Source: a virus
Lineage: Duplodnaviria > Heunggongvirae > Uroviricota > Caudoviricetes
Virus record (IMG/VR): IMGVR_UViG_3300037502_002518
Span: 5,712 to 69,711 of that record
Length of the DNA: 64,000 nucleotides
Direction: 5' to 3' (one strand)
A model generated the notes under the pieces. It worked only from the letters and a program-made list of their open reading frames with translations, ran no database searches and was not told the origin of the DNA. Positions within the stretch are counted from its first letter, which is position 1; every line of letters starts with the position of its first letter. The translations under genes were made by a program, and so were the position numbers. Below are positions 5,686 through 55,939 of the stretch, piece after piece.

Positions 5686-5901
5686 ATGTTTAAAATGAAC
5701 AAAAATGAAAACAAAACAAACACGTTACTACTGGTAGTTATTGCAGGTGCAATCCTATTCTTTGGGATTTTTGCAATGAACAAGTTTAATGAAAGCGAAG
5801 AAGAAAAAGAACGAGAAGAACGATATGAACAGCTAGAAAAACAGAAAGAAGAGATTGATAAAGTTAACGAGTATTTAGACCTTAGAGAAGAGCTTGAATA
5901 G
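5686..5901 (+). CDS. small membrane protein (one TM helix followed by an E/K-rich tail)
   Basis: hydrophobic stretch LLLVVIAGAILFFGIFAM. Confidence 0.5.
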   Translation: MFKMNKNENKTNTLLLVVIAGAILFFGIFAMNKFNESEEEKEREERYEQLEKQKEEIDKVNEYLDLREELE

Positions 5902-19426: not shown

Positions 19427-19798
19427 ATGCTTCTTTTATATATGAGTTTGACTGGGAACGTGAGAGAGTTTGTTGAAAAAACAGGCTTGAAAAATAGAGA
19501 GATAGAGCCTACAAATCCATTCTTTGAAGTTAATGAGGACTTTGTAATTGTAGTTCCATCATATGAAGGATATATAAATGAAGAAGTTGAAGACTTTTTA
19601 TCATATAAAGACAATTCAAAGTTTTTGAGAGGTTTTGCATCAAGTGGAAATTTGAATTTTGATGAACTATTTTGTGTGAATGCAAAGCAGTTGTCAAAGA
19701 AGCTCAATAAACCTCTTTTTTTTAAGTTTGAATATAGTGGTACAGACAGAGATGTTAATTTGTTTTTAGAAAGGTTGGGAGAAATTGAAAAAGGTTGA
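19427..19798 (+). CDS. nrdI: NrdI flavodoxin-like protein
   Basis: N-terminal [13 protein letters not shown] (flavin-binding loop), size, position. Confidence 0.75.
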
Positions 19799-20525
19799 GC
19801 TAAAAAAGGGGAAAGAAAGTGAGAATTATTTTCACTTAAATAATTTGTTAAATATTCCAAAAGATGGAAAGATACAACTAAATAAAGACAAAGAGGCTGT
19901 AAAAGAATATTTCCTTGAGTACGTGAATCCAAATACAATGTTCTTTCATTCATTAGAAGAAAAGTTGGGATATTTGATTGAAAATGATTATATCGAAGAA
20001 GATATGATTAACAACTATAGCAAGGAATTCATTAAAGACTTATTTAAAAAGGCATATGACAAGAAGTTTAGGTTTAAAAGTTTTATGGGAGCATATAAGT
20101 TTTATTCCCAATATGCTATGAAGACAAATGATGGAAAGTGGTTCTTAGAACGATATGAAGACCGTGTTGTCTTTAACGCTTTAAAGCTTGCAATGGGAGA
20201 CGAAAGTTTAGCAGATTCGCTGGTTGAAGAAATGATAAACCAACGTTATCAACCTGCAACTCCAACATTTTTAAATGCAGGGAAAAAGAGACGTGGAGAA
20301 TTTATTTCATGTTTCCTGCTTACAATTGATGACTCTATGAATTCAATTGGACGTGCAATTAATTCTGCTTTGCAACTATCGAAGCGAGGTGGAGGGGTAG
20401 GAATCGGATTATCTAACATTCGTGCCAACAATGACCCAATCAAAGGTGTTGAAGGTTTATCGGACGGTGTTGTTCCTGTCATGAAGTTGTTAGAGGATTC
20501 GTTCTCATATGCCAATCAACTGGGT
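19785..20525 (+). CDS. nrdE: class Ib ribonucleotide reductase alpha subunit NrdE, exon 1
   Basis: [24 protein letters not shown] motifs; ends ...SYANQLG. Confidence 0.8.
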
Positions 20526-20848
20526 TGACATACAGGCTCAGTATAAAACGGGTTAACTGCTGGAACTTCTTTAGAGCTTAATGCGCCACAACGCAACTGG
20601 AAACGGTAATCGTAAAGGCTTAAAAAGTATTAAGATTAGAAAATCAGCATCCACTCCTCTAAGTGTTAAAACATAAGAGGAAGGTTCAACGACTAAGTGA
20701 CAGCAAAAGTGATTTTGTTGTCCGAATCCGTTAAATGTTTAATAAATAACACTCTTTATTAAATATGAAATATATAGTCTGTTCTTTAGGGAGACCTAAA
20801 GAGTGTAGCAGAAATGACTGCACCCCACGTTAGTGGAGTAACAAAAAG
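20526..20848 (+). mobile_element. group I intron 1 in nrdE (323 nt, no ORF)
   Basis: R-like AACGACTAAG and S-like ATATAGTCTG P7 elements; 5' exon ends U, intron ends G; splicing restores ANQLG|QRSGSGVTYL. Confidence 0.7.
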
Positions 20849-21265
20849 CAAAGGTCTGGTTCTGGAGTAACGTACTTGAATATCTTCCACCCAGATGTGA
20901 TTGACTTTCTTGCAGTAAGAAAAGAGAATGCAGATGAAAAGGTTAGAATTAAAACTTTATCTCTTGGTTTAGTTGTCCCAGACAAATATTATGAGCTTGT
21001 AAAAAACAATGAGAATATGTATCTTTTCTCTCCTTATGATGTTGAAAAAGAATATGGAAAACCTTTCTCATATATTGATATTACAAAAGAATATGACAAC
21101 ATGGTTAATAATAAAAATATTCGTAAATCTAAGATTAAAGCGAGAGAATTAGAAACTGAAATTAGTAATCTTCAAAATGAAAGTGGTTATCCTTATATTA
21201 TTAATATTGACCATGCAAACAAAGCCAACCCAGTTCATGGAAAAATTATCCAGAGTAACTTGTGT
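20849..21265 (+). CDS. nrdE: NrdE exon 2
   Basis: ...YLNIFHPDVIDFL ... SNLC. Confidence 0.75.
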
Positions 21266-21542
21266 AAACAAATGCACCTTTAAGTAGGAATGCTTATCGA
21301 AAATCCTGTTAAACGGGGAAACCCTCACTTGAGACAATCCCGTGCTAAATTTATTTGATACATTATGTTTTTTTAAATAATAAATGCCGAACGACTATCC
21401 CACTATGGGAGTACACTACAAGCCTTTGGTGGTGGAAAAGCAGGACATCCAGAACGGATGATGATATAGTCTGCTCTATATGGTGACATATAGCTGTGGT
21501 TAGCCCACGCTCTAATTTTAGCGAGATTAGAGGAACAAAAGG
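21266..21542 (+). mobile_element. group I intron 2 in nrdE (277 nt, no ORF)
   Basis: AACGACTATC and ATATAGTCTG elements; junction restores SNLC|VEIFQV... with the expected 23-residue spacing to DISCNLGS. Confidence 0.7.
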
Positions 21543-22571
21543 GTAGAAATTTTTCAAGTGCAAACGGAGTCAAAAATCAATGATGACCAAACTTATGAAG
21601 TTTTAGGTAGTGATATTTCTTGTAACCTTGGGTCAACCAATATCACAAATTTAATGGAGTCACCAAACTTTGGAAAATCAGTAGAGGTTATGACAAGAGC
21701 ATTAACAAATGTATCTGATATGTCAAGCATTGATTCAGTCCCATCAATAAAAAATGGTAATGATAGATACCACTCTATTGGTCTAGGAATGATGAACCTT
21801 GCTGGGTTCTTAGCAAAAAATCAAATTCATTATGGTAGTGATGAATCACTAGAGTTTGTTGACAAATACTCTATGCTTTTAAATTATTGGACTCTTGTTG
21901 CAAGTAATAAGATTGCAATTGAAAGAGATGAGAAGTTCTATGAATTTGACAAATCAAAGTATGCTAGTGGGGAATATTTTGATGAATACTTTAAGATTTT
22001 AGAACTTGATTTTAAACATGACAAGGTTAAAGGTTTGTTTGGAGGTGTCTATATTCCAACAATGAAAGATTGGAACGTGTTAAAGGATGCTGTTATGACT
22101 TATGGCTTATACTCAGCGTTTAGGCTTGCCACACCTCCGACAGGAAGTATCAGCTACATCAATGAAGCTACAGCTTCAATTCATCCAGTCATTTCAAGAA
22201 TTGAAGAAAGAGTTGAAGGTAAACGTGGTAAAGTTTATTATCCTGCTCCTTATCTTTCAGAAGAAACAATTCCATATTACAAGTCAGCATATGATATTGA
22301 CCAAAGAAAAATTATCGATGTGTATGCTACAGCACAAAATCATATTGACCAAGGTTTGAGTATGACATTATATACAAAATCAAATTTTAATGAAGGTCTT
22401 TATGAATGGAAAGTAGGAACAGCTTATCCTACAGAGAAAACGACAAGAGATTTAAACATTTTCAGAAACTACGCTTGGTCTAAAGGGATTAAGTCAATTT
22501 ACTACATTAGAACGTTTACCGAAGATGGCGATACAATTGGTGCAAACGAATGTGAAAGCTGTAGTGTATAA
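21543..22571 (+). CDS. nrdE: NrdE exon 3 (includes C-terminal CESC)
   Basis: DISCNLGS, C-terminal redox cysteines. Confidence 0.75.
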   Translation, partial: VEIFQVQTESKINDDQTYEVLGSDISCNLGSTNITNLMESPNFGKSVEVMTRALTNVSDMSSIDSVPSIKNGNDRYHSIGLGMMNLAGFLAKNQIHYGSDESLEFVDKYSMLLNYWTLVASNKIAIERDEKFYEFDKSKYASGEYFDEYFKILELDFKHDKVKGLFGGVYIPTMKDWNVLKDAVMTYGLYSAFRLATPPTGSISYINEATASIHPVISRIEERVEGKRGKVYYPAPYLSEETIPYYKSAYDIDQRKIIDVYATAQNHIDQGLSMTLYTKSNFNEGLYEWKVGTAYPTEKTTRDLNIFRNYAWSKGIKSIYYIRTFTEDGDTIGANECESCSV

Positions 22572-22584
22572 GGGGGGAAATGAT

Positions 22585-23538
22585 ATGACAGAAGTTTTTA
22601 AAAGTATTAATTGGAATGAAATTGAAGACCCAGTTGATAAAATGACTTGGGACAAACTGATTAGTCAATTTTGGATTGACACAAGAATGCCAATTTCCAA
22701 TGATTTACCAGACTGGAGAAAGTTAAGTGATAAAGAAAAAGATTTGTTCAATAAGGTATTTGGAGGGCTAACAGCCCTTGACACCTTGCAGTCAGAAGAT
22801 GGAAATGAGCAGATTAAACAAGATGCAAAGACAAAGCATGAAATTGCTGTTTACAACAATATTCAATTTTTTGAGACAATTCATGCTAAAAGTTATAGTT
22901 CAATTTTTAGTACACTTTGCACCCCTAAAGAAATCAAGGAAATTTTTAAATGGACTGAAGACAACGACATGTTGCAATACAAAGCAAAAAGAATTAAAGA
23001 CATCTACCTAAATGGAACTTCTATGCAGAAGAAAATTGCTTCAGTGTTTCTAGAGTCGTTCCTATTCTATAGTGGTTTTTATACACCATTATACTATTTT
23101 GGGAAAGGAAAAATGGTAAACGTTGCAGAAGTAATTAGATTAATCTTGCGAGATGAGTCATCACATGGTGTTTTTATCGGACACAAATTCAACTTAGAGT
23201 ATAAAAAAGCTTCAAAAGAAGAACAAGAAGAAATCAAAAATTGGGCTTACGAATTACTATATGACCTATATAATAATGAAGTTAAATATACAGAGTATCT
23301 TTATGACGAACTTGGATGGACAGAGGACGTTAAAACATTCTTAAGATATAATGCAAACAAAGCATTAATGAACTTAAAGTTGCCAGTTTTGTTTCCAGAT
23401 TCAGCAGAAGACGTTAATCCAATTGTCATGAACGGTATTTCAACCAGTACAAGCAATCAAGACTTCTTTAGTAGTGTGGGTAATGGTTACTTGTTAACAC
23501 CTGTAGAAGATATGAAAGATGAAGATTATAACTTTTAG
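22585..23538 (+). CDS. nrdF: class Ib ribonucleotide reductase beta subunit NrdF
   Basis: ferritin-like di-iron motifs (ESFLFYSGF, RDESSHG); RBS AAGGGGGGAAATGATATG. Confidence 0.8.
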   Translation: MTEVFKSINWNEIEDPVDKMTWDKLISQFWIDTRMPISNDLPDWRKLSDKEKDLFNKVFGGLTALDTLQSEDGNEQIKQDAKTKHEIAVYNNIQFFETIHAKSYSSIFSTLCTPKEIKEIFKWTEDNDMLQYKAKRIKDIYLNGTSMQKKIASVFLESFLFYSGFYTPLYYFGKGKMVNVAEVIRLILRDESSHGVFIGHKFNLEYKKASKEEQEEIKNWAYELLYDLYNNEVKYTEYLYDELGWTEDVKTFLRYNANKALMNLKLPVLFPDSAEDVNPIVMNGISTSTSNQDFFSSVGNGYLLTPVEDMKDEDYNF

Positions 23539-23577: not shown

Positions 23578-24228
23578 TTGGCATTAGTTATTAAAAAGGA
23601 CGGTTCAACAAATTACTGGGATAGTGAAAAAATTGTAGAAGCAATTATGAAATCAAGTGATAGAGTAAGCAAGAAAAAGCAACTGACAAAAGAGCAGATA
23701 AAATCCATTGTTGATGGAGTTGAAAAAAATGTATCATCATTTGATACGATTTATACATCAGATATTCACGACATGGTACTGTCTCAATTGCAAATTTTTA
23801 ACAAAAGTGTTTATAGAGAATATAAGATTTATCGTGACTATAAGAAAAAATTTAGCGATTCTTTTATAAATGTCACAGAGTATTCAAACAAGATTGTGTA
23901 CAGTGGGGACAAAGAGAATGCAAACAAAGATTCTACTTTAAATTCAACAAAACAAGCGTTAATTTCAGAGGGCATTATGCGTGAATTCATGAGAAACTTT
24001 GAGCTTAGAAAAGAGTGGGTAAAAGCTCATGATGATGGGTGGATTCACATTCATGATATGGCAAACAGATACCTTGGAGGTATTAATTGTTGCATTTTTG
24101 ATATGGACAATCTACTAAAAGATGGTTTTGAGATGAATGGTTCAAAATACTTTGAACCAAAATCAGCACAAACCGCTTGGGCTGTGATTGGAGATGTGAC
24201 ATTAAGTGCATCTGCGCAACAGTACGGT
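23578..24228 (+). CDS. nrdD: anaerobic (class III) ribonucleotide reductase NrdD, exon 1 (ATP-cone)
   Basis: N-terminal ATP-cone-like sequence; TTG start after RBS AAGGAGAG. Confidence 0.7.
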
Positions 24229-25095
24229 AAATAATTGCCGTAATAAAACCTGCTAACCAGCAAATGCTGGGTGTCTATTAAAAATAGGCTAACGGTGAAA
24301 CCTTAACAGATAATGCTGATGGCAATACCGTGCTTGACTCCATAAATAAATGAAAAGGGGGTGAAAATATGGAAGAAGTTTGGAAGAGTATAGACGATTT
24401 TGAAAATTATATGGTGAGTAACTATGGTAGAGTAAAATCCATCGATAGAATTATAAAAGAAAATGGTAAAAAAGGTTATTTTAAAAAAGGTGTTGTTTTA
24501 AAGGGTCAACCAAATAAAAACAATGGAAGAATATATGTTAACCTATACAACACTAGGGAAAAGAAAATTAAAAATGCGATTGTTGCCAGACTAGTTGCGA
24601 AAGCTTTTATAGACAATCCTAAAAATCTCAGAGAAGTTAATCATATAGATAGAGATGTAACAAATAACCATGTAGACAATTTAGAATGGGTAAGCCCTAA
24701 AGAAAACATGAAACACCTTGAAAATAAATATGGTTTTGATTTTGGCAGAATACCTGTTATTGGAAAACATAAAGAGACTGGGGAAGAAGTTTATTTTTCT
24801 TCAATAAAAAATGCCACTGATTGGCTTAGTGAAAAACAGGGAAAAATTGCTTATGCATCTGGAATAAGCAACTGTTGTAAAAGCACAAGAAAATCTTATA
24901 GAGGATATAAGTGGGAGTCAAGTTTAGAGACTATCGAAAGCATAGATTGACAACAAAAAGCTAGTTGACAATTGAAGAAGCGAGTAGAGTAGGATATGTG
25001 GTGAAATTCCCAATCCGAAACGGCAGGCAACGACTAGCAATCGTTGAAGATATAGTGCAAATAAGTAACCAGTAGGGAAACCTACATCTTATTTG
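24229..25095 (+). mobile_element. group I intron 1 in nrdD (867 nt) carrying an HNH homing endonuclease ORF
   Basis: AACGACTAGC element, structured flanks, internal HNH ORF. Confidence 0.7.
24369..24950 (+). CDS. intron-encoded HNH homing endonuclease (NUMOD4-like N-terminus YMVSNYGRVKS; HNH core EVNHIDRDVTNNHVDNLEWVSPKEN)
   Basis: HNH motif read directly from the sequence; RBS AAAGGGGGTG. Confidence 0.85.
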   Translation: MEEVWKSIDDFENYMVSNYGRVKSIDRIIKENGKKGYFKKGVVLKGQPNKNNGRIYVNLYNTREKKIKNAIVARLVAKAFIDNPKNLREVNHIDRDVTNNHVDNLEWVSPKENMKHLENKYGFDFGRIPVIGKHKETGEEVYFSSIKNATDWLSEKQGKIAYASGISNCCKSTRKSYRGYKWESSLETIESID

Positions 25096-25296
25096 GGTTT
25101 CAGTATTCCAAACATTGAATCAATCGTAGCTCGATATGCCGAAAAATCATATACAACACACTATGAATACTTTATTGACAAAGGTATTGATGATAACAAA
25201 GCTCAAGAGCTTGCTGAAGAAATGACTATTAGAGAGATTGAACAAGGGTATCAAGGGTTTGAAACCAAGTTGAACACTGTCTCAAATTCGCTGGGT
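25096..25296 (+). CDS. nrdD: NrdD exon 2
   Basis: in-frame segment between two introns. Confidence 0.6.
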
Positions 25297-25597
25297 TAGT
25301 TATATGGCTCACCTTACTGTAAACGGTAAGGATAATAGGTGGTGAACCTGCAAAAGCAGGGTGTGTATTAAATTAATATGCTAACGGTAGAACCTAAATC
25401 TTTTGACAAGGCAATACCGTGCCAAGTTTAAAGAGAAATCTTTTTAAAGGTGTAACGACTAAGATGTACGTCCTAAGTGTATACACATATGGATATGAAA
25501 TCTGTACAGACAGAGTGAAATTCTTTGTTTGGAAGCGCCACCCACCTAAAGCTTAAAGCTATGGTGAAGATATAGTCTACACTTATAGAAATATAAG
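25297..25597 (+). mobile_element. group I intron 2 in nrdD (301 nt, no ORF); 5' part closely resembles intron 1
   Basis: AACGACTAAG and GAAGATATAGTCTAC elements; shares AACCTGC-AAAGCAG...CTAACGGT...GGCAATACCGTGC block with intron 1. Confidence 0.7.
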
Positions 25598-26863
25598 GTT
25601 ATTGTGCAAATCCCTTTCGTCTCCATTTCATTTGGTTTAGACACGTCAAAATGGGGCAGAATCATTTCTAAGAAAATGTTGGAAATACGTGAACGTGGTA
25701 TAGGAAGAGACAGGATTTCAGCGGTGTTCCCGAAGCAAATTATGTTTATTCGTAGTGAAATCAACAAAAATGAAGACAGTCCAAATCATGACATTTATTT
25801 AAAAGCAATTGAATGTAGCAGAAAACGTTTGTATCCAGATTATTTAAGCTTAGACTCACCAGAGACGAATAATCTTGCAGAGATTTATGAACGCTCTGGA
25901 CAGGCAGTGATAGCAATGGGATGTAGAGCGTATTTAAGCCCTTATGAATATGAGGGTAAAGAGATTTACAACGGTCGTTTTAACATTGGAGCAGTCAGTT
26001 TAAACTTACCTAAAATGGCAATTGAAGCGAATGGCAACAAAAGTAAGTTTTTAAAATTGATTGATAAATATTCTGAAATGGTTTTTGAAATTCATGAAGA
26101 TTATTACCAAAGACTTTCACAGGTAAAGGCTTCAAGTAACCCACTTCTATTTATGGAAGGTGGCTCATTTAAAAAGCTAAAGGCAGATGAAACAATTGAA
26201 GAGTTACTAAAAGGAGCAACAGCATCATTAGGATACGTTGGTGTTGAAGAAGCAATGGTTGCATTAACTGGGGAAGGAATTACAAAGAATAAAGATTTCT
26301 CCATTGAGACAGTGCAAAGGCTAAAAGATAATGTCAATAAAGCATCAAACAAATACAATAGACTTGGGGCTTTGTACAGTACCCCCGCAGAAAATATTAT
26401 CTACCGTTTTAATAATATTAATCGTGAACAATATGGAGAAATTGACGGTGTAACAACGAGAGAATACATGACAAATTCTTTTCATGTCCCTGTTTTTGAA
26501 GATGTTTCAGTATTAGAGAAGATTGATTTTGAGTCGAACTTTCACTCTATCGCAACAGGTGGAAGAATTTCATATTGTGAGTTCCCTTACAATGTAGATT
26601 CAAAGATTTTAAAACAAGCCATTGATTTTGCAATGGAAAAAGGTTTATACTATGGTGTCAATGTTATTTCAGCAACATGTAATGATTGTTCTCACTCTGG
26701 TGATTTTGAGGATTGCCCAGAATGTGGTTCAGACAATGTGACATCAGTTTCTCGTGTATGTGGATATTTAAGTTTTGGAAAAATTAAAGGGGATTCACGA
26801 TATAACCTTGGTAAGCAAGCAGAGGTAAGAGAAAGAGTAAAACACACATTTGGAGGTTGCTAA
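25598..26863 (+). CDS. nrdD: NrdD exon 3 (glycyl-radical domain, RVCGYL motif, C-terminal Zn site CNDCSHSG...CPECG)
   Basis: glycyl radical motif SRVCGYLS. Confidence 0.75.
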   Translation, partial: VIVQIPFVSISFGLDTSKWGRIISKKMLEIRERGIGRDRISAVFPKQIMFIRSEINKNEDSPNHDIYLKAIECSRKRLYPDYLSLDSPETNNLAEIYERSGQAVIAMGCRAYLSPYEYEGKEIYNGRFNIGAVSLNLPKMAIEANGNKSKFLKLIDKYSEMVFEIHEDYYQRLSQVKASSNPLLFMEGGSFKKLKADETIEELLKGATASLGYVGVEEAMVALTGEGITKNKDFSIETVQRLKDNVNKASNKYNRLGALYSTPAENIIYRFNNINREQYGEIDGVTTREYMTNSFHVPVFEDVSVLEKIDFESNFHSIATGGRISYCEFPYNVDSKILKQAIDFAMEKGLYYGVNVISATCNDCSHSGDFEDCPECGSDNVTSVSRVCGYLSFGKIKGDSRYNLGKQAEVRERVKHTFGGC

Positions 26864-27379
26864 ATGGCTAGAATTCACCAACTGAAAGATGTAGATATGG
26901 ACAATGGTTACTGGGGCTTTTGCACATCAATATGGTTTAATGGTTGTGTTCATGAGTGCAAGGGGTGTTGGAATAGTGAAACATGGGCTGTCAATGACAG
27001 CCTCTATGTTCCTAATGAAGAGATAATTGAAAAAACTGTAGAATATCTTGATAACTACTTTCCAAAAGACTTGAGTATACTTGGGGGAGACCCACTAGCA
27101 CCTTTCAATGTGGATGACACATATGAAATATTGAGTGGAATATTAGAAAAGCGACCACAGACAAGAGTTGTATGTTGGACAGGATACATTTACGAAGCTT
27201 TAATTAAGCATGGATGGGCAGATAAAATTCTTCCAATGATTGATATTTTAATTGATGGTAGATATATTGAGAAGTTGCATGTTGAAGGAAAACCATATGG
27301 CTCTAGTAATCAAAGGATTATAAGATTAAAAGATTCACTAAAAAAAGGGAAGATTATACTCGATGAACAAAAAACATGA
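26864..27379 (+). CDS. nrdG: anaerobic RNR activating enzyme NrdG (radical SAM)
   Basis: CxxxCxxC-like cluster GCVHECKGCWN; coupled to nrdD stop. Confidence 0.75.
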   Translation: MARIHQLKDVDMDNGYWGFCTSIWFNGCVHECKGCWNSETWAVNDSLYVPNEEIIEKTVEYLDNYFPKDLSILGGDPLAPFNVDDTYEILSGILEKRPQTRVVCWTGYIYEALIKHGWADKILPMIDILIDGRYIEKLHVEGKPYGSSNQRIIRLKDSLKKGKIILDEQKT

Positions 27380-52123: not shown

Positions 52124-55100
52124 TTGTTAGATTCAAGTAATTTTGCAAGCCTGCATTGCCACTCGCATTTTTCGCTTCTCGACTCAATCATGAGTCCAGA
52201 AGACATTGTAAAACAAGCAAAAGAATTGGGCTATAAGGCTGTGGCTGTAACGGAACACGGAAATATGCATTCATTTATTGATGGATACAAAGAAGCTAAA
52301 AAGCAGGGGATTAAGTATATCTTTGGGTCTGAAGTTTATGAGACAGACGACATGGATTATAAAGAGTCAGATGCAAGTCGATACCACTTGCTTTTGTTAG
52401 CTAAAAATGAGACAGGATTAAAAAACTTATTCAAAGTTGTGTCTGAGGGTTCGACAAGAGGTTTCTATGGTAAGCCTCGTATTGATAGAGAACTACTATC
52501 GGAACACTCAGAAGGTCTTATTGCAACAAGCGCTTGCCTTGCGAGTAGATTGATGAGGTTGCTTCAACAGGGCTATTGTCCATGTTGCAAACAAAGCAAT
52601 GGTGAACATAAAGAGTCGTGCGACAACGATGAAGTGTTTGAACCAAAGTGGGAAGAAGCCAAAGAAGAATTACAAAAATATAAAGACATTTTTGGTGACG
52701 ATTTCTACATTGAAATTCAATCACATGATACTCACGACCAAAAGATTGGGAATCAGCGTATTCTTCAATTGGCAAAAGAAACGGATACAAAATTTATTTT
52801 GACATTTGATGCTCACATGCCAGATGGCAGTGAAAAAACGCTTGATATTCATAGACGTTTTATTGAAGTTAGTCAAAAAGGTCGTGAAGTTGGAGAGACT
52901 TATATTGGTTGCTACCAACAAGATATGGAAACGGTTTATGATACCTTAGTCCCTCAAATTGGACAAGAAGATTTAGAGCAAGCTATTTTAAATACTGGAG
53001 CTTTAGCAGATTCATGTGAAGACATTGAATTGGACTTAAACAGACCACCAATTATGCCTCATATTGAATTCCCAAAAGAGTATAAGTCAGATGTTGACTA
53101 CTTAAAAAAGCTTGTCAATGATGGGTGGAAAGAAAGGGAAATCCACAAAAAAACAAAAGAAGAACAAAAGGTTTATAAAGAACGTGTTCTTCATGAGATG
53201 GACATTTTAGAAAAGCTTGATTATGCAGGTTATTTCCTTATCATTCACAAATTTATGAATGAATTTAGAAAGCAAGGTATTCCATTAGGCTGGGGACGTG
53301 GGAGTGCGGCTGGGTCTTTAGTCCTGTATTTAATTGGTGTAACCAATGTAGATAGTGTTTATTGGGATTTAGATTTCTCTAGGTTTGCCAACTTAGGAAG
53401 GCGACAAATGGCTGATGTTGATATTGATATTTCAAAAGCCAAACGTGGAGAAGCCTTAAAAATAACAGATGATTTATTTGGAAATAAAAAAGTTGCACAC
53501 TTGTGTACATTTAATTCTTTCTCACCAAAAGTAGCAATTAAAGACTTGGGGAAAGTATTTGACCAAAGCGAAGATAGTCCATATTTTGGAAAGATTCCAT
53601 ATTCAATGAGGGAACGTGCATCTGGACTAATCACTGATGGTTCTAACATTGAAGACGTTTTAGAAGCATCTGGTGAGCTTAGAAGAATCAAGGAAAAGTT
53701 TCCACTGTGGATTGAATATGCACAAGAACTTCAAAACTTACCTAAATCTGTAGGTTCTCATGCTTCTGCAATCATCATTGCCAACGAAGACATTGTAAAT
53801 TATGCACCTGTTATGTATAACAAAGATGGTCGTGTAATGATGCAAGTTGAAATGGGGAATGCAGAAAAAGACTTGGGACTGGTGAAGTTTGATTATCTTG
53901 GACTTGAGAGTTTAGACGTGGTAAATGAGACTTTATCTCTTTTAGGAAAAGGGTGGGAAGATTTATTTGACATTCCATTTGACGATATAAGTACATTAAA
54001 AAACATTTATGCGAAAGGTAACACACTAGGAGTTTTTCAAATGGAATCACAAACCCCAAGAAAAATATTTGAAGACATGTATGAGGGGATTCCAGAAGAT
54101 AAATTTTCTATCAATGATGTTGTTGCTGTAAATGCTTTAAACAGACCTGCTGTATTGAGTCTTGGAATGCACAACAACTACATCAAAGGGAAAAGAGACG
54201 AATCAGAAGTGTCATACATTCACGAAGACCTTAGACCTATCTTAAATGAGACATATGGTGTTCTCTTATATCAAGAAGAAGCTTTGAATGTTTTTAGACT
54301 TGCAGGATTCCCAGAAGAAGAGGTAGACGTTGCCAGAAGGTGTCTGCGTGAGGACACAATGGTACACATGTCTGACGGAACACAGAAAAAGATAAAAGAT
54401 ATTAAAGTTGGAGATTATGTGTTGAGTTACAATGAGCGTGGAGTATCTGAACCAAAAAGAGTTAACAAAGTTTTTTTCAATGGGAAAAAGTATGTAAACA
54501 GATATTTGACAGAAGAAGGACATGAGATATTTTCAACAAAAGACCATCACGTTTTAGGTCTTAATGGATTCGACAGGATTGAAAATTTTAAAGTTGGTGA
54601 CTGTTTAATGACACCAAAAGAAAGTGTTCTCCCCCAATATGTTCCAACAATAATAAAAAATATCGAAAACAGCATTGAATTTTGTGATGTATATGACATT
54701 GAAGTTGAAGATAACCACAATTATATTGCGAATGATATAATTGTTCACAACTCAATTGGTAAGAAGATTCCAGAAGAGATGGACAAACTATACGACAAAT
54801 TTTCTAGTGGTCTTAAAAAAATAGGATGGAATAAGTTGCAAATAAAGGAAACTTGGGAATTGATTGCTTCACAAGCGACTTACAGCTTTAATAAATCACA
54901 TTCCGCCAGCTATGCAATTCTGTCCTTTGTTATGGCTTATCTAAAAAACCACCATCCAAAAGAGTTTATAACCGCCTTATTGACAGATAAAAGGGGAAAC
55001 TTTGAAGATACATCTCTGTATATTGATGAGGCAAACAGAATGGGGATAAAGGTTTTAGAACCAAATATAAACACATCCAATTTGGCATACACTATATCTG

Positions 55101-55939
55101 ATGAAGGTATTGTATTTGGACTAAGCTCAATTAAGGGTGTTGGCTCTAGTGCAGAGACAATTGTCGAAGAACGAAATACAAACGGTGAATTTAAAGATTT
55201 AGAAGACTTTCTTTCTAGAGTCAAGTCAGACAAGACAGTCACAATCGCACTAATTAAATCTGGTGCTTTTGGACAGGAGAAAAATGAGCTTTTAAAAAGA
55301 TACTTTGAATTTATTTACACTCCTACTTTGTGGAAAGAGAGAAAAACATCTCCATCTAGGAAAGAGTTGCAGAAATTCATTCCAGACTTATCACTAGAGG
55401 ACTTTAAATCTATGACAAAAGAGGATAGAATGGACACATTCAATAAATATAAACATGAGGTTTACAAAAAGTCTGAAGAAAAAAGAAAAATGAACCAATG
55501 GAATGACTTTAAAGACAAGTATATCTCTCATGATGAGTCTATGTATGAGTATGAAACATTGTCAATATTCATCAATGGTAATCCATTTGACCCATACAAA
55601 AACATTATCAAACCATTTGATAAATTTAAAGATGGTTCAGATAAAATACTTGTGGCAGGAACTATTACTGATATACAGAAAAAGAAAGATAAAAACAATA
55701 ACCAATTTGCTTACATTAGCCTATTGACTCCATATGATGGAATTATAGAAGGTCTTGTGTTTGCAGGAGTATATTCAGAAGTTTCTGACATGATTAAAAA
55801 GGGGAACAATATTGTATGTATCTCTAAAAAGAGTGGAAGTCAATTCATACCCAAGAAGATGAAATCTTTTGATGACTGGAAAGAGGTGATAAGACGAAAG
55901 AAGGAAAGAAAAGAAAAGATTGAAAAACTTAAGAAGTAG
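52124..55939 (+). CDS. DNA polymerase III alpha-like (DnaE-type, N-terminal PHP domain) replicative polymerase, contains a mini-intein
   Basis: PHP motif HCHSHFSLLDS...VTEHGNM; DnaE motifs; TTG start after AAGGAGGAATT. Confidence 0.75.
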   Translation: MLDSSNFASLHCHSHFSLLDSIMSPEDIVKQAKELGYKAVAVTEHGNMHSFIDGYKEAKKQGIKYIFGSEVYETDDMDYKESDASRYHLLLLAKNETGLKNLFKVVSEGSTRGFYGKPRIDRELLSEHSEGLIATSACLASRLMRLLQQGYCPCCKQSNGEHKESCDNDEVFEPKWEEAKEELQKYKDIFGDDFYIEIQSHDTHDQKIGNQRILQLAKETDTKFILTFDAHMPDGSEKTLDIHRRFIEVSQKGREVGETYIGCYQQDMETVYDTLVPQIGQEDLEQAILNTGALADSCEDIELDLNRPPIMPHIEFPKEYKSDVDYLKKLVNDGWKEREIHKKTKEEQKVYKERVLHEMDILEKLDYAGYFLIIHKFMNEFRKQGIPLGWGRGSAAGSLVLYLIGVTNVDSVYWDLDFSRFANLGRRQMADVDIDISKAKRGEALKITDDLFGNKKVAHLCTFNSFSPKVAIKDLGKVFDQSEDSPYFGKIPYSMRERASGLITDGSNIEDVLEASGELRRIKEKFPLWIEYAQELQNLPKSVGSHASAIIIANEDIVNYAPVMYNKDGRVMMQVEMGNAEKDLGLVKFDYLGLESLDVVNETLSLLGKGWEDLFDIPFDDISTLKNIYAKGNTLGVFQMESQTPRKIFEDMYEGIPEDKFSINDVVAVNALNRPAVLSLGMHNNYIKGKRDESEVSYIHEDLRPILNETYGVLLYQEEALNVFRLAGFPEEEVDVARRCLREDTMVHMSDGTQKKIKDIKVGDYVLSYNERGVSEPKRVNKVFFNGKKYVNRYLTEEGHEIFSTKDHHVLGLNGFDRIENFKVGDCLMTPKESVLPQYVPTIIKNIENSIEFCDVYDIEVEDNHNYIANDIIVHNSIGKKIPEEMDKLYDKFSSGLKKIGWNKLQIKETWELIASQATYSFNKSHSASYAILSFVMAYLKNHHPKEFITALLTDKRGNFEDTSLYIDEANRMGIKVLEPNINTSNLAYTISDEGIVFGLSSIKGVGSSAETIVEERNTNGEFKDLEDFLSRVKSDKTVTIALIKSGAFGQEKNELLKRYFEFIYTPTLWKERKTSPSRKELQKFIPDLSLEDFKSMTKEDRMDTFNKYKHEVYKKSEEKRKMNQWNDFKDKYISHDESMYEYETLSIFINGNPFDPYKNIIKPFDKFKDGSDKILVAGTITDIQKKKDKNNNQFAYISLLTPYDGIIEGLVFAGVYSEVSDMIKKGNNIVCISKKSGSQFIPKKMKSFDDWKEVIRRKKERKEKIEKLKK
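54341..54751 (+). mobile_element. mini-intein (137 aa, no endonuclease domain) in the polymerase: CLREDTMVH...IIVHN followed by S
   Basis: N-terminal Cys, block B TKDHH, C-terminal VHN+Ser; flanking extein ARR|SIGKKIPEEM matches the conserved DnaE RRAMGKKKPEEM region. Confidence 0.75.

Follow-up and report, generated by a model that had tools for sequence, protein, structure and literature searches.

The ribonucleotide reductase (RNR) gene nrdD of a metagenomic tailed phage, IMG/VR record IMGVR_UViG_3300037502_002518, is split by two group I introns, called here I1 and I2. The stretch analysed, positions 5,712 to 69,711 of that record, is referred to as the window; it is 64 kb (64,000 nucleotides, nt) long with a G+C content of about 33%, and all positions given are those of the window. 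The split gene and its two introns are real. As judged from the sequence, the introns were very probably acquired independently, both from one widespread IA2-like family of phage introns. The likeness between them, which an earlier note on this DNA took as a sign that a single intron had duplicated or homed inside nrdD, most probably reflects a conserved and covarying 5′ module of that family, consisting of two hairpins, P4 and P5.

Joining of the three nrdD exons (Table 1) gives a NrdD protein of 702 amino acids (aa). The spliced protein matches the full Pfam NRDD model as a single stretch (E 2.3e-136), contains an ATP-cone and a glycyl-radical domain, and is colinear with two NrdD proteins whose genes have no introns, that of Clostridium phage phi8074-B1 and, at 54% identity, that of Enterococcus phage VRE9_3. 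The borders of I1 are defined by a contig from another metagenome (L021, 97.8% identical), which joins 24228 straight to 25096, and the corresponding residues of homologues without the intron are QQYG↓GF (↓, splice junction). The interval and the length of 867 nt that had been proposed for I1 are confirmed by this junction. The earlier note placed the start of exon 3 at 25598, which is 9 nt too early and adds a spurious VIV to the protein. Intron-less homologues all read NSLG↓QIPFV, and the orthologous intron of contig L005 (UViG_2832702071) is in frame only with the end ...GGAATG↓CAAATT, which supports the end of I2 at 25606 and gives it 310 nt rather than 301 nt. In both introns an in-frame stop follows the 5′ splice site after at most two codons, and excision restores the reading frame, with the junctions QQYG↓GF and NSLG↓QIPF of the intron-less homologues. 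A megablast search of the whole region against phage genomes returned no match, so there is no close cultured relative among them.

Table 1. Features of the nrd cluster and of the two nrdD introns in the window; bits and E-values of the 5′ module copies refer to covariance model R1 (see text).
Feature	Positions	Strand	Details
nrdE, 3 pieces	19785-22571		interrupted by two ORF-less group I introns
nrdE intron	20507-20801		ORF-less group I; Rfam RF00028 52.5 bits (passes threshold)
nrdE intron	21256-21493		ORF-less group I; Rfam RF00028 84 bits (passes threshold)
nrdF	22525-23538
nrdD exon 1	23578-24228	+	aa 1-217; ATP-cone and start of NRDD domain; 3′ end CAG TAC GGT
Intron I1, group I (IA2-like phage family)	24229-25095	+	867 nt; absent precisely in L021; terminal base G
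I1 P1	24223-24228 with 24237-24242		exon strand TACGGT; internal guide sequence (IGS) GCCGTA
I1 copy of family 5′ module	24245-24337	+	P3 5′ strand, P3.1, P3.2, J3/4, P4, P5, P4′; 73.8 bits, E 5e-13
I1 P3	24249-24254 with 25022-25027
I1 P3.1	24257-24270
I1 P3.2	24273-24289
I1 P4	24292-24297 with 24326-24331
I1 P6	24332-24338 with 24917-24923		ORF in P6 loop
I1 homing endonuclease ORF	24369-24950	+	193 aa; NUMOD4 and HNH_3; I-HmuI-like
I1 P7 5′ strand	24927-24933	+	GAGACTA; within last codons of HNH ORF
I1 P7.1	24946-24972
I1 P8 hairpin	25028-25046		CAACGA-CTAGCAA-TCGTTG
I1 P7 3′ strand	25053-25058	+	TAGTGC
I1 P9	25058-25095
nrdD exon 2	25096-25296	+	aa 218-284; 3′ end TCG CTG GGT
Intron I2, ORF-less group I	25297-25606	+	310 nt; last base G25606; same broad family as I1
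I2 P1	IGS 25307-25311		exon strand TGGGT; IGS GCTCA
I2 P2	25312-25331
I2 copy of family 5′ module	25335-25426	+	81.3 bits, E 1.3e-14
I2 P3	25338-25344 with 25536-25542
I2 P3.1	25347-25360
I2 P3.2	25363-25381
I2 P4	25384-25389 with 25415-25420
I2 P6	25421-25451
I2 P7	25455-25461 with 25573-25578		canonical ACGACTA / TAGTCT
I2 P7.2	25507-25531
I2 P8	25543-25566
I2 P9	25582-25597
nrdD exon 3	25607-26863	+	aa 285-702, glycyl-radical domain included; 5′ end CAA ATC CCT = QIP
Empty third-intron site	25732/25733	+	aa 326/327; window TTCCCG↓AAG
nrdG	26864-27379	+	radical-SAM activating enzyme, uninterrupted; Pfam Fer4_12 / Radical_SAM

The claim that nrdD contains two group I introns, only one of them with an HNH/NUMOD endonuclease, is borne out, and I2 indeed lacks an endonuclease open reading frame (ORF). 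In Pfam, the I1 ORF is recognized by NUMOD4 (E 2.8e-13) and HNH_3 (E 1.5e-5, 25.0 bits against a cutoff of 24.8), which confirms the position proposed for it, and it is preceded by the Shine-Dalgarno sequence GGGGGTG. Its protein weakly matches I-HmuI (PDB 1U3E, E 0.0039), with an alignment that spans the H..N..N motif; I-HmuI, which belongs to the SPO1 polymerase intron, is an HNH enzyme that nicks its target. The last approximately 34 nt of the ORF overlap the 3′ strand of P6, J6/7, the 5′ strand of P7 and the start of P7.1. Intron HNH ORFs of phiEF17H nrdE, CS07 nrdD and L030 nrdD are 33-40% identical to this protein, with that of L030 (40%) as the closest homologue found. In a search for a second I1 copy, relatives of the HNH protein did not exceed 47% identity in IMG/VR or 35% in GTDB genomes. 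An exact-protein look-up returned the contig to which the window itself belongs, 117 kb long (JGI 3300035670, Ga0310129_0000135), and reported a second contig with an identical HNH protein; no readable second copy of I1 was found.

The core anatomy of both introns was derived by comparison with ten related introns. P1, P3, P3.1, P3.2, P4, P6, P8 and P9 are present in I1 as well as in I2 and covary across 11 family members. The helices follow the order P3, P3.1, P3.2, J3/4, P4-P6, P7, P7.1/P7.2, P3′, P8, P9, which is the IA arrangement, with the 3′ strand of P3 abutting P8. The segment between P7 and P3′ (about 88 nt in I1 and 74 nt in I2) holds P7.1 and P7.2, as in IA2-like introns, and the IA2 subgroup is itself heterogeneous (PMC11878797). 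The splice sites carry the expected hallmarks: in the P1 of both introns the splice-site U pairs with G, I1 reads TACGGT↓...GCCGTA and ends in ...ATTTG, and I2 reads TGGGT↓...GCTCA and ends in ...ATTGTG. Covariation is evident in P3, which is CCTGCT/GGCAGG in I1, GGTGGTG/CGCCACC in I2, CCACGTG/TGCGTGG in CS07 and CTACGTG/CGCGTAG in phiEF17H, and in P7.1, where ATTGACAAC/GTTGACAAT of I1 corresponds to GCGCCAA/TTGGTGC of EmilHeitz; P7.2 is closed by GTGAAATTC and is weaker in I1 than in the relatives. For I2, an automatic helix search gave TAGGTGG/CCACCTA as P3, which was rejected in favor of GGTGGTG/CGCCACC on the basis of homology with L005 and other introns.

The location of P7 in I1 differs from that given in the earlier note, which assigned it to AACGACTA (25029-25036). 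This element is part of the P8 hairpin and lies just 13 nt before the 3′ strand of P7. It was rejected because such a gap is too short for P3′ and P8, and because homologues put P7 at GAGACTATCGAAAGC. The true 5′ strand aligns with AACGACTATCGAAAGC / AGAGACTATCGAAAGC (GACTATCGAAAGC) in the introns of CS07, phiEF17H, BSP10, EF1 and EmilHeitz (rV5-like). For the 3′ side, the sequence ATATAGTC had been quoted for I1, but the actual letters are ATATAGTG (25050-25057).

A feature common to I1, I2 and all their relatives is the pair of covarying hairpins that separates the 5′ strand of P3 from J3/4-P4 (24255-24290 in I1, 25345-25381 in I2), in place of the short direct P3-J3/4-P4 join seen in T4 td or Twort. 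The names P3.1 and P3.2 were assigned in this analysis, and no description of such a two-hairpin P3-J3/4 layout was found in the literature searched. In the 5′ module that contains the hairpins, 98% of cells pair and compensatory changes occur in 12 of the 20 pairs, values reached by none of 500 shuffles. The covariance model R1 describes 93 positions of this module and was built from eight introns of nrdE, DNA-polymerase and nrdD genes of other phages, with I1 and I2 excluded. It finds exactly two strong matches in the window, namely I2 and I1, and it also matches introns in nrdD, nrdE and polA of other phage loci with 54-95 bits. A weak match at 55178-55270 (23 bits, E 0.03), within a 1271-aa ORF (52124-55939), probably arose by chance.

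The resemblance of the first roughly 100 nt of the two introns was compared with that seen in the rest of the family. The local match is real: blastn within the 64-kb window aligns 54 nt at 81% identity (E about 1e-8), the best non-self match of each intron. It does not extend beyond the 5′ module, which is about 90 nt long. Within this module I1 and I2 are 68% identical, which is similar to I1 and phiEF17H nrdE (67%) and lower than I2 and the nrdE introns of EF5 (75%) or phiEF17H (72%). The 3′ domains, from P7 to the 3′ splice site, are only 45% identical and of different types, GACTATCGAAAGC...GAGTAGAGTA in I1 and GACTAAGATGTAC...ATGAAATCTGTAC in I2. Here foreign introns are closer: the 3′ domain of I2 is 70% identical to those of L005 or an Enterocloster phage, and that of I1 is 55-58% identical to those of EF1, BSP10, phiAGATE and CS07. 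In blastn, the 5′ part of I1 matches Bacillus phage DNA-polymerase introns (106 nt, E 4e-7) and its 3′ part the polymerase introns of rV5-like coliphages (E 7e-6), while part of the I2 module matches introns of Enterococcus Kochikohdavirus nrdE, Bacillus phage polymerase and Staphylococcus phage origin; Enterocloster phage introns are among the blastn matches as well. These identities place I1 and I2 in different sub-lineages of one family. The earlier view of a single intron family thus holds in the broad sense, and the two introns are not sister copies.

The histories of the two insertion sites also differ. The I1 site (aa 217/218) is occupied by HNH introns in CS07-type Clostridium sporogenes phages and in the IMG/VR contigs L030 and L031. 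At the I2 site (aa 284/285), L005, whose NrdD is 60% identical, has an intron of 1257 nt whose P5 loop holds a GIY-YIG ORF, and L005 has no intron at aa 217/218. Further nrdD introns are located at aa 389/390 (L023, L024, L028), about 547 (Enterococcus phage EF1) and about 671 (L023), which together with aa 326 makes at least six nrdD intron sites across the relatives (aa 217, 284, 326, 389, ~547, ~671).

The intron at aa 326 is that of a phage from another metagenome, represented by contigs L021 and L019, which are 95-98% identical to the window. The backbone of this relative shows 0 mismatches in most 100-nt bins. It is without I1, keeps I2 (98% identical) and has a third nrdD intron (L019 377-760), an ORF-less member of the nrdD-intron family of about 390 nt, inserted after ATT TTC CCT↓ (AIFP↓KQIMF). 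The P1 of this third intron is CCCT/GGGG, and at position -1 of its empty site the window carries a G in place of the T. The allele without I1, GCGCAACAGCATGGC↓GGTTTCAGT, reads CAG CAT GGC↓GGT where the window reads CAG TAC GGT↓GGT, so that 3 of the 6 exon bases of P1 differ. Around I1, mismatches between the two phages amount to 5-14% over some 400 nt in each direction, with flanking tracts that are 8-9% divergent, and further patches occur at nrdE intron 2, at the third-intron site and at 26200-26900. Such a pattern is what would be expected from homing with co-conversion of the flanking exons, or from recombinational loss of the intron. The patch at 26200-26900 (peak at 26300-26400) in exon 3 is up to 28% divergent and lies near the site of the HNH intron of EF1 at aa ~547; an intron once gained or lost here may have left it as a scar, or it may stem from recombination that has nothing to do with introns. 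The description of the gene as a snapshot of intron gain and loss is thus supported by a near-identical relative that lacks I1 and carries a third intron, and not by intragenic duplication.

The choice of insertion sites across the family may follow the P1 helix. P1 of I1, TACGGT/GCCGTA (24223-24242), is identical to that of the Bacillus phage DNA-polymerase introns, and P1 of I2, GGGT/GCTCAC (25292-25311), matches that of an Enterococcus phage nrdE intron (loci compared for the two pairings: L009, L011, L014, L004). In 10 of the 12 family members compared the insertion follows a GGT glycine codon, the exceptions being the Enterocloster intron (…GGATT↓) and the third intron of L019 (…CCCT↓). 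The shared P1 and the GGT-codon sites suggest that the need for P1 pairing limits where these introns insert. A more far-reaching proposal, which is put forward tentatively and is rather unlikely as a whole, is that the family spread among polA, nrdE and nrdD by insertion wherever 4-6 nt of the 5′ exon complement the IGS, and that I1 in addition has a variant G.G guanosine-binding pair. Under this proposal, ectopic transposition may be limited by P1 pairing, in a manner resembling reverse splicing, and not by target recognition of the endonuclease.

Several points weigh against two independently acquired and functional introns. The first is a single base in the 3′ strand of P7 of I1, where G25057 replaces a C that is constant among the relatives compared and is also the Rfam consensus base. 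The P7 of Tetrahymena is CAGACUA / UAGUCG, and 25057 is the position that we take to be C311 of its guanosine-binding pair G264-C311. GAGACTA / TAGTGC in I1 therefore predicts that the binding pair is a G.G mismatch, and I1 may thus be poor at splicing or unable to splice. Alternatively, the metagenome assembly may be wrong at this base, or G25057 may bulge so that the next C pairs and GACTA / TAGT(G)C keeps the G-C pair. Second, detection by the Rfam group I model is incomplete. I2 reaches 48 bits in a local search with RF00028 (E 9.5e-11), which is 2 bits under the gathering score of 50, and I1 is undetected by Rfam because an ORF of 580 nt interrupts P6. The model treats P3.1 and P3.2 as an insertion, which helps to push I2 below the gathering score, and a scan of the whole window, at the gathering score as well as at an E-value threshold, detected the two nrdE introns but missed those of nrdD. 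Third, the 5′ modules may have been exchanged between introns by recombination. Finally, as far as two genomes can tell, the I1 polymorphism may be either a gain of the intron by the window phage or its loss from the relative, and splicing and cleavage are both read from sequence alone.

The strongest rival to functional introns builds on the same base: the C-to-G change in P7 would disable the ribozyme, and I1 would be a decaying, splicing-defective intron with an intact HNH gene, in a disrupted nrdD whose loss is tolerated since the phage also encodes the class Ib enzyme by nrdE and nrdF. The deviation from an otherwise invariant C at the presumed equivalent of C311 and the weak P7.2 of I1 are consistent with it. 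It is nevertheless improbable, as the three nrdD exons are intact and conserved, all other core helices of I1 are intact, the single base may be misassembled or, in the bulged register, without consequence for the G-C pair, and the divergent, co-conversion-like flanks argue for a recent acquisition of a functional element. If the base is true and the intron functional, I1 would possess an unusual guanosine-binding site.

Much less credit can be given to the origin of I1 and I2 as paralogues, by duplication or ectopic homing within nrdD followed by loss of the endonuclease from I2. Such a history would account for the significant local match of the two introns, the best non-self match in the window, and for their common architecture, in which the hairpins P3.1 and P3.2 are unusual. 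Paralogues would be expected to be nearest relatives and alike over the full length, and I1 and I2 are neither. The matching segment is conserved throughout the family, being equally present in nrdE, DNA-polymerase and other nrdD introns, with identity to introns of other genes and phages that is equal or higher, and the 3′ domains are of two types. The intron orthologous to I2 carries its GIY-YIG ORF in P5, as opposed to the HNH ORF of I1 in P6, the near-identical relative has I2 without I1, and the P1/IGS pairs differ (TACGGT/GCCGTA against TGGGT/GCTCA). Likeness limited to generic core elements, which the earlier note itself had named as the outcome that would speak against its reading, is in substance what the I1/I2 alignment and the family-wide module show. 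Independent acquisition from one family remains the preferred explanation.

According to this explanation, both introns would leave the nrdD transcript by ribozyme self-splicing, which would restore the 702-aa NrdD. Cleavage at the 5′ site would come directly after the U that pairs with G in P1, and at the 3′ site directly after the terminal G. I1 is predicted to be mobile: the endonuclease from its P6 loop would nick or cut the intron-less nrdD of co-infecting relatives at QQ(Y/H)G↓GF, and repair would then copy I1 together with flanking exon sequence, that is, homing with co-conversion. The natural I1-minus allele of L021 is a candidate substrate of this enzyme. I2 would be stable in this lineage as an ORF-less intron, and its orthologue in the 60%-identical phage still has a GIY-YIG endonuclease. 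Self-splicing, nicking and homing are proposed on the strength of the well-studied phage group I introns and I-HmuI-type enzymes. That the insertions are not introns at all but free-standing endonuclease insertions or spacers, with the nrdD fragments translated separately as with mobE splitting nrdA in Aeromonas phage Aeh1, is scarcely credible. Gene callers do annotate three separate ORFs, and there are precedents for RNR genes that are split but not spliced (PMC3653736). However, the group I cores of both insertions are complete and covary, the U/G splice hallmarks and in-frame junctions match the intron-less homologues to the codon, exon 2 encodes just 67 aa, exon 3 is without a plausible start at the homology boundary, and related members of the family in Bastillevirinae were shown to splice (PMC11878797).

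The nrd cluster of the window contains four introns within 7 kb. The two in nrdE have a canonical P3-J3/4-P4 layout and are outside the nrdD intron family, with just 26 bits for model R1 (21265-21349).

The closest known counterparts of I1 are the SPO1-type DNA-polymerase introns of Bastillevirinae (phiAGATE, BSP10, Crookii). Their P1 is the same as that of I1, their 5′ part is 71-74% identical to I1 over about 105 nt, and they share the I1-type 3′ domain (GACTATCGAAAG...GAGTAGAGTA) and the ORF of an HNH/NUMOD nuclease in the P6 loop. They differ in the host gene, polA instead of nrdD, and G25057 is found in I1 alone; the HNH protein of I1 has no significant blastp match to phiAGATE gp056 or BSP10 HNH1. 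The nrdD introns of the CS07 group and of L030/L031 occupy the I1 site, QQ(Y/F)G↓G, belong to the same family and carry an HNH ORF in P6. P1 at this site, TTCGGT/GCCGAA, covaries with that of I1. Core identity to I1 is only 53-55%, the NrdD proteins are about 42% identical, and the phage backbones (48-kb Clostridium phages) are unrelated.

For I2, the nearest example is the L005 intron at exactly the same site, NSLG↓QIPF, which has the IGS, P2 and P9 of I2 in common. This intron and that of Enterocloster phage CB457P2 share the 3′ domain type of I2, but in both the P5 loop encodes a protein, of GIY-YIG type in L005 and HNH-like with 250 aa in the Enterocloster phage, where I2 has no ORF; the host gene of the latter intron is a different, unannotated one. 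The Enterocloster intron (L003 1572-2696) is itself unannotated and is located between CB457P2_00001 and CB457P2_00003, and CB457P2_00002, annotated as a hypothetical protein, is the HNH-like ORF of its P5 loop. The T4 nrdD (sunY) intron with I-TevII is likewise a group IA intron of the same gene with endonuclease-mediated homing (PMC2988022, PMC1865063), and it differs by its GIY-YIG ORF and insertion site. It was rejected as an orthologue of I2, as its site is about 11 codons upstream and it has no match to the R1 module (L036).

The kind of element described here is already known, and no new mechanism is revealed by it. Its value lies in a clean natural case of intron turnover, in which near-identical metagenome phages differ in I1 and in a third intron, so that the window phage and L021 form a ready intron-plus/intron-minus pair. 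It also draws attention to a phage intron family with extra P3-P4 hairpins and loop ORFs that is under-detected by the Rfam group I model. Genes with several introns have been described in the nrdE of Twort (two) and Brochothrix A9 (three), with endonuclease ORFs in just some of the introns, and among the RNR genes of phages nrdD is reported to be split more often than any other (PMC3653736). In Bastillevirinae, polA contains up to three introns per gene, and the nuclease type is decoupled from the ribozyme clade (PMC11878797). Compared with the multi-intron RNR and polymerase genes of Herelleviridae, the multi-intron gene in the present case is nrdD, and with it the nrdD of Firmicutes-type large phages joins the list of multi-intron genes.

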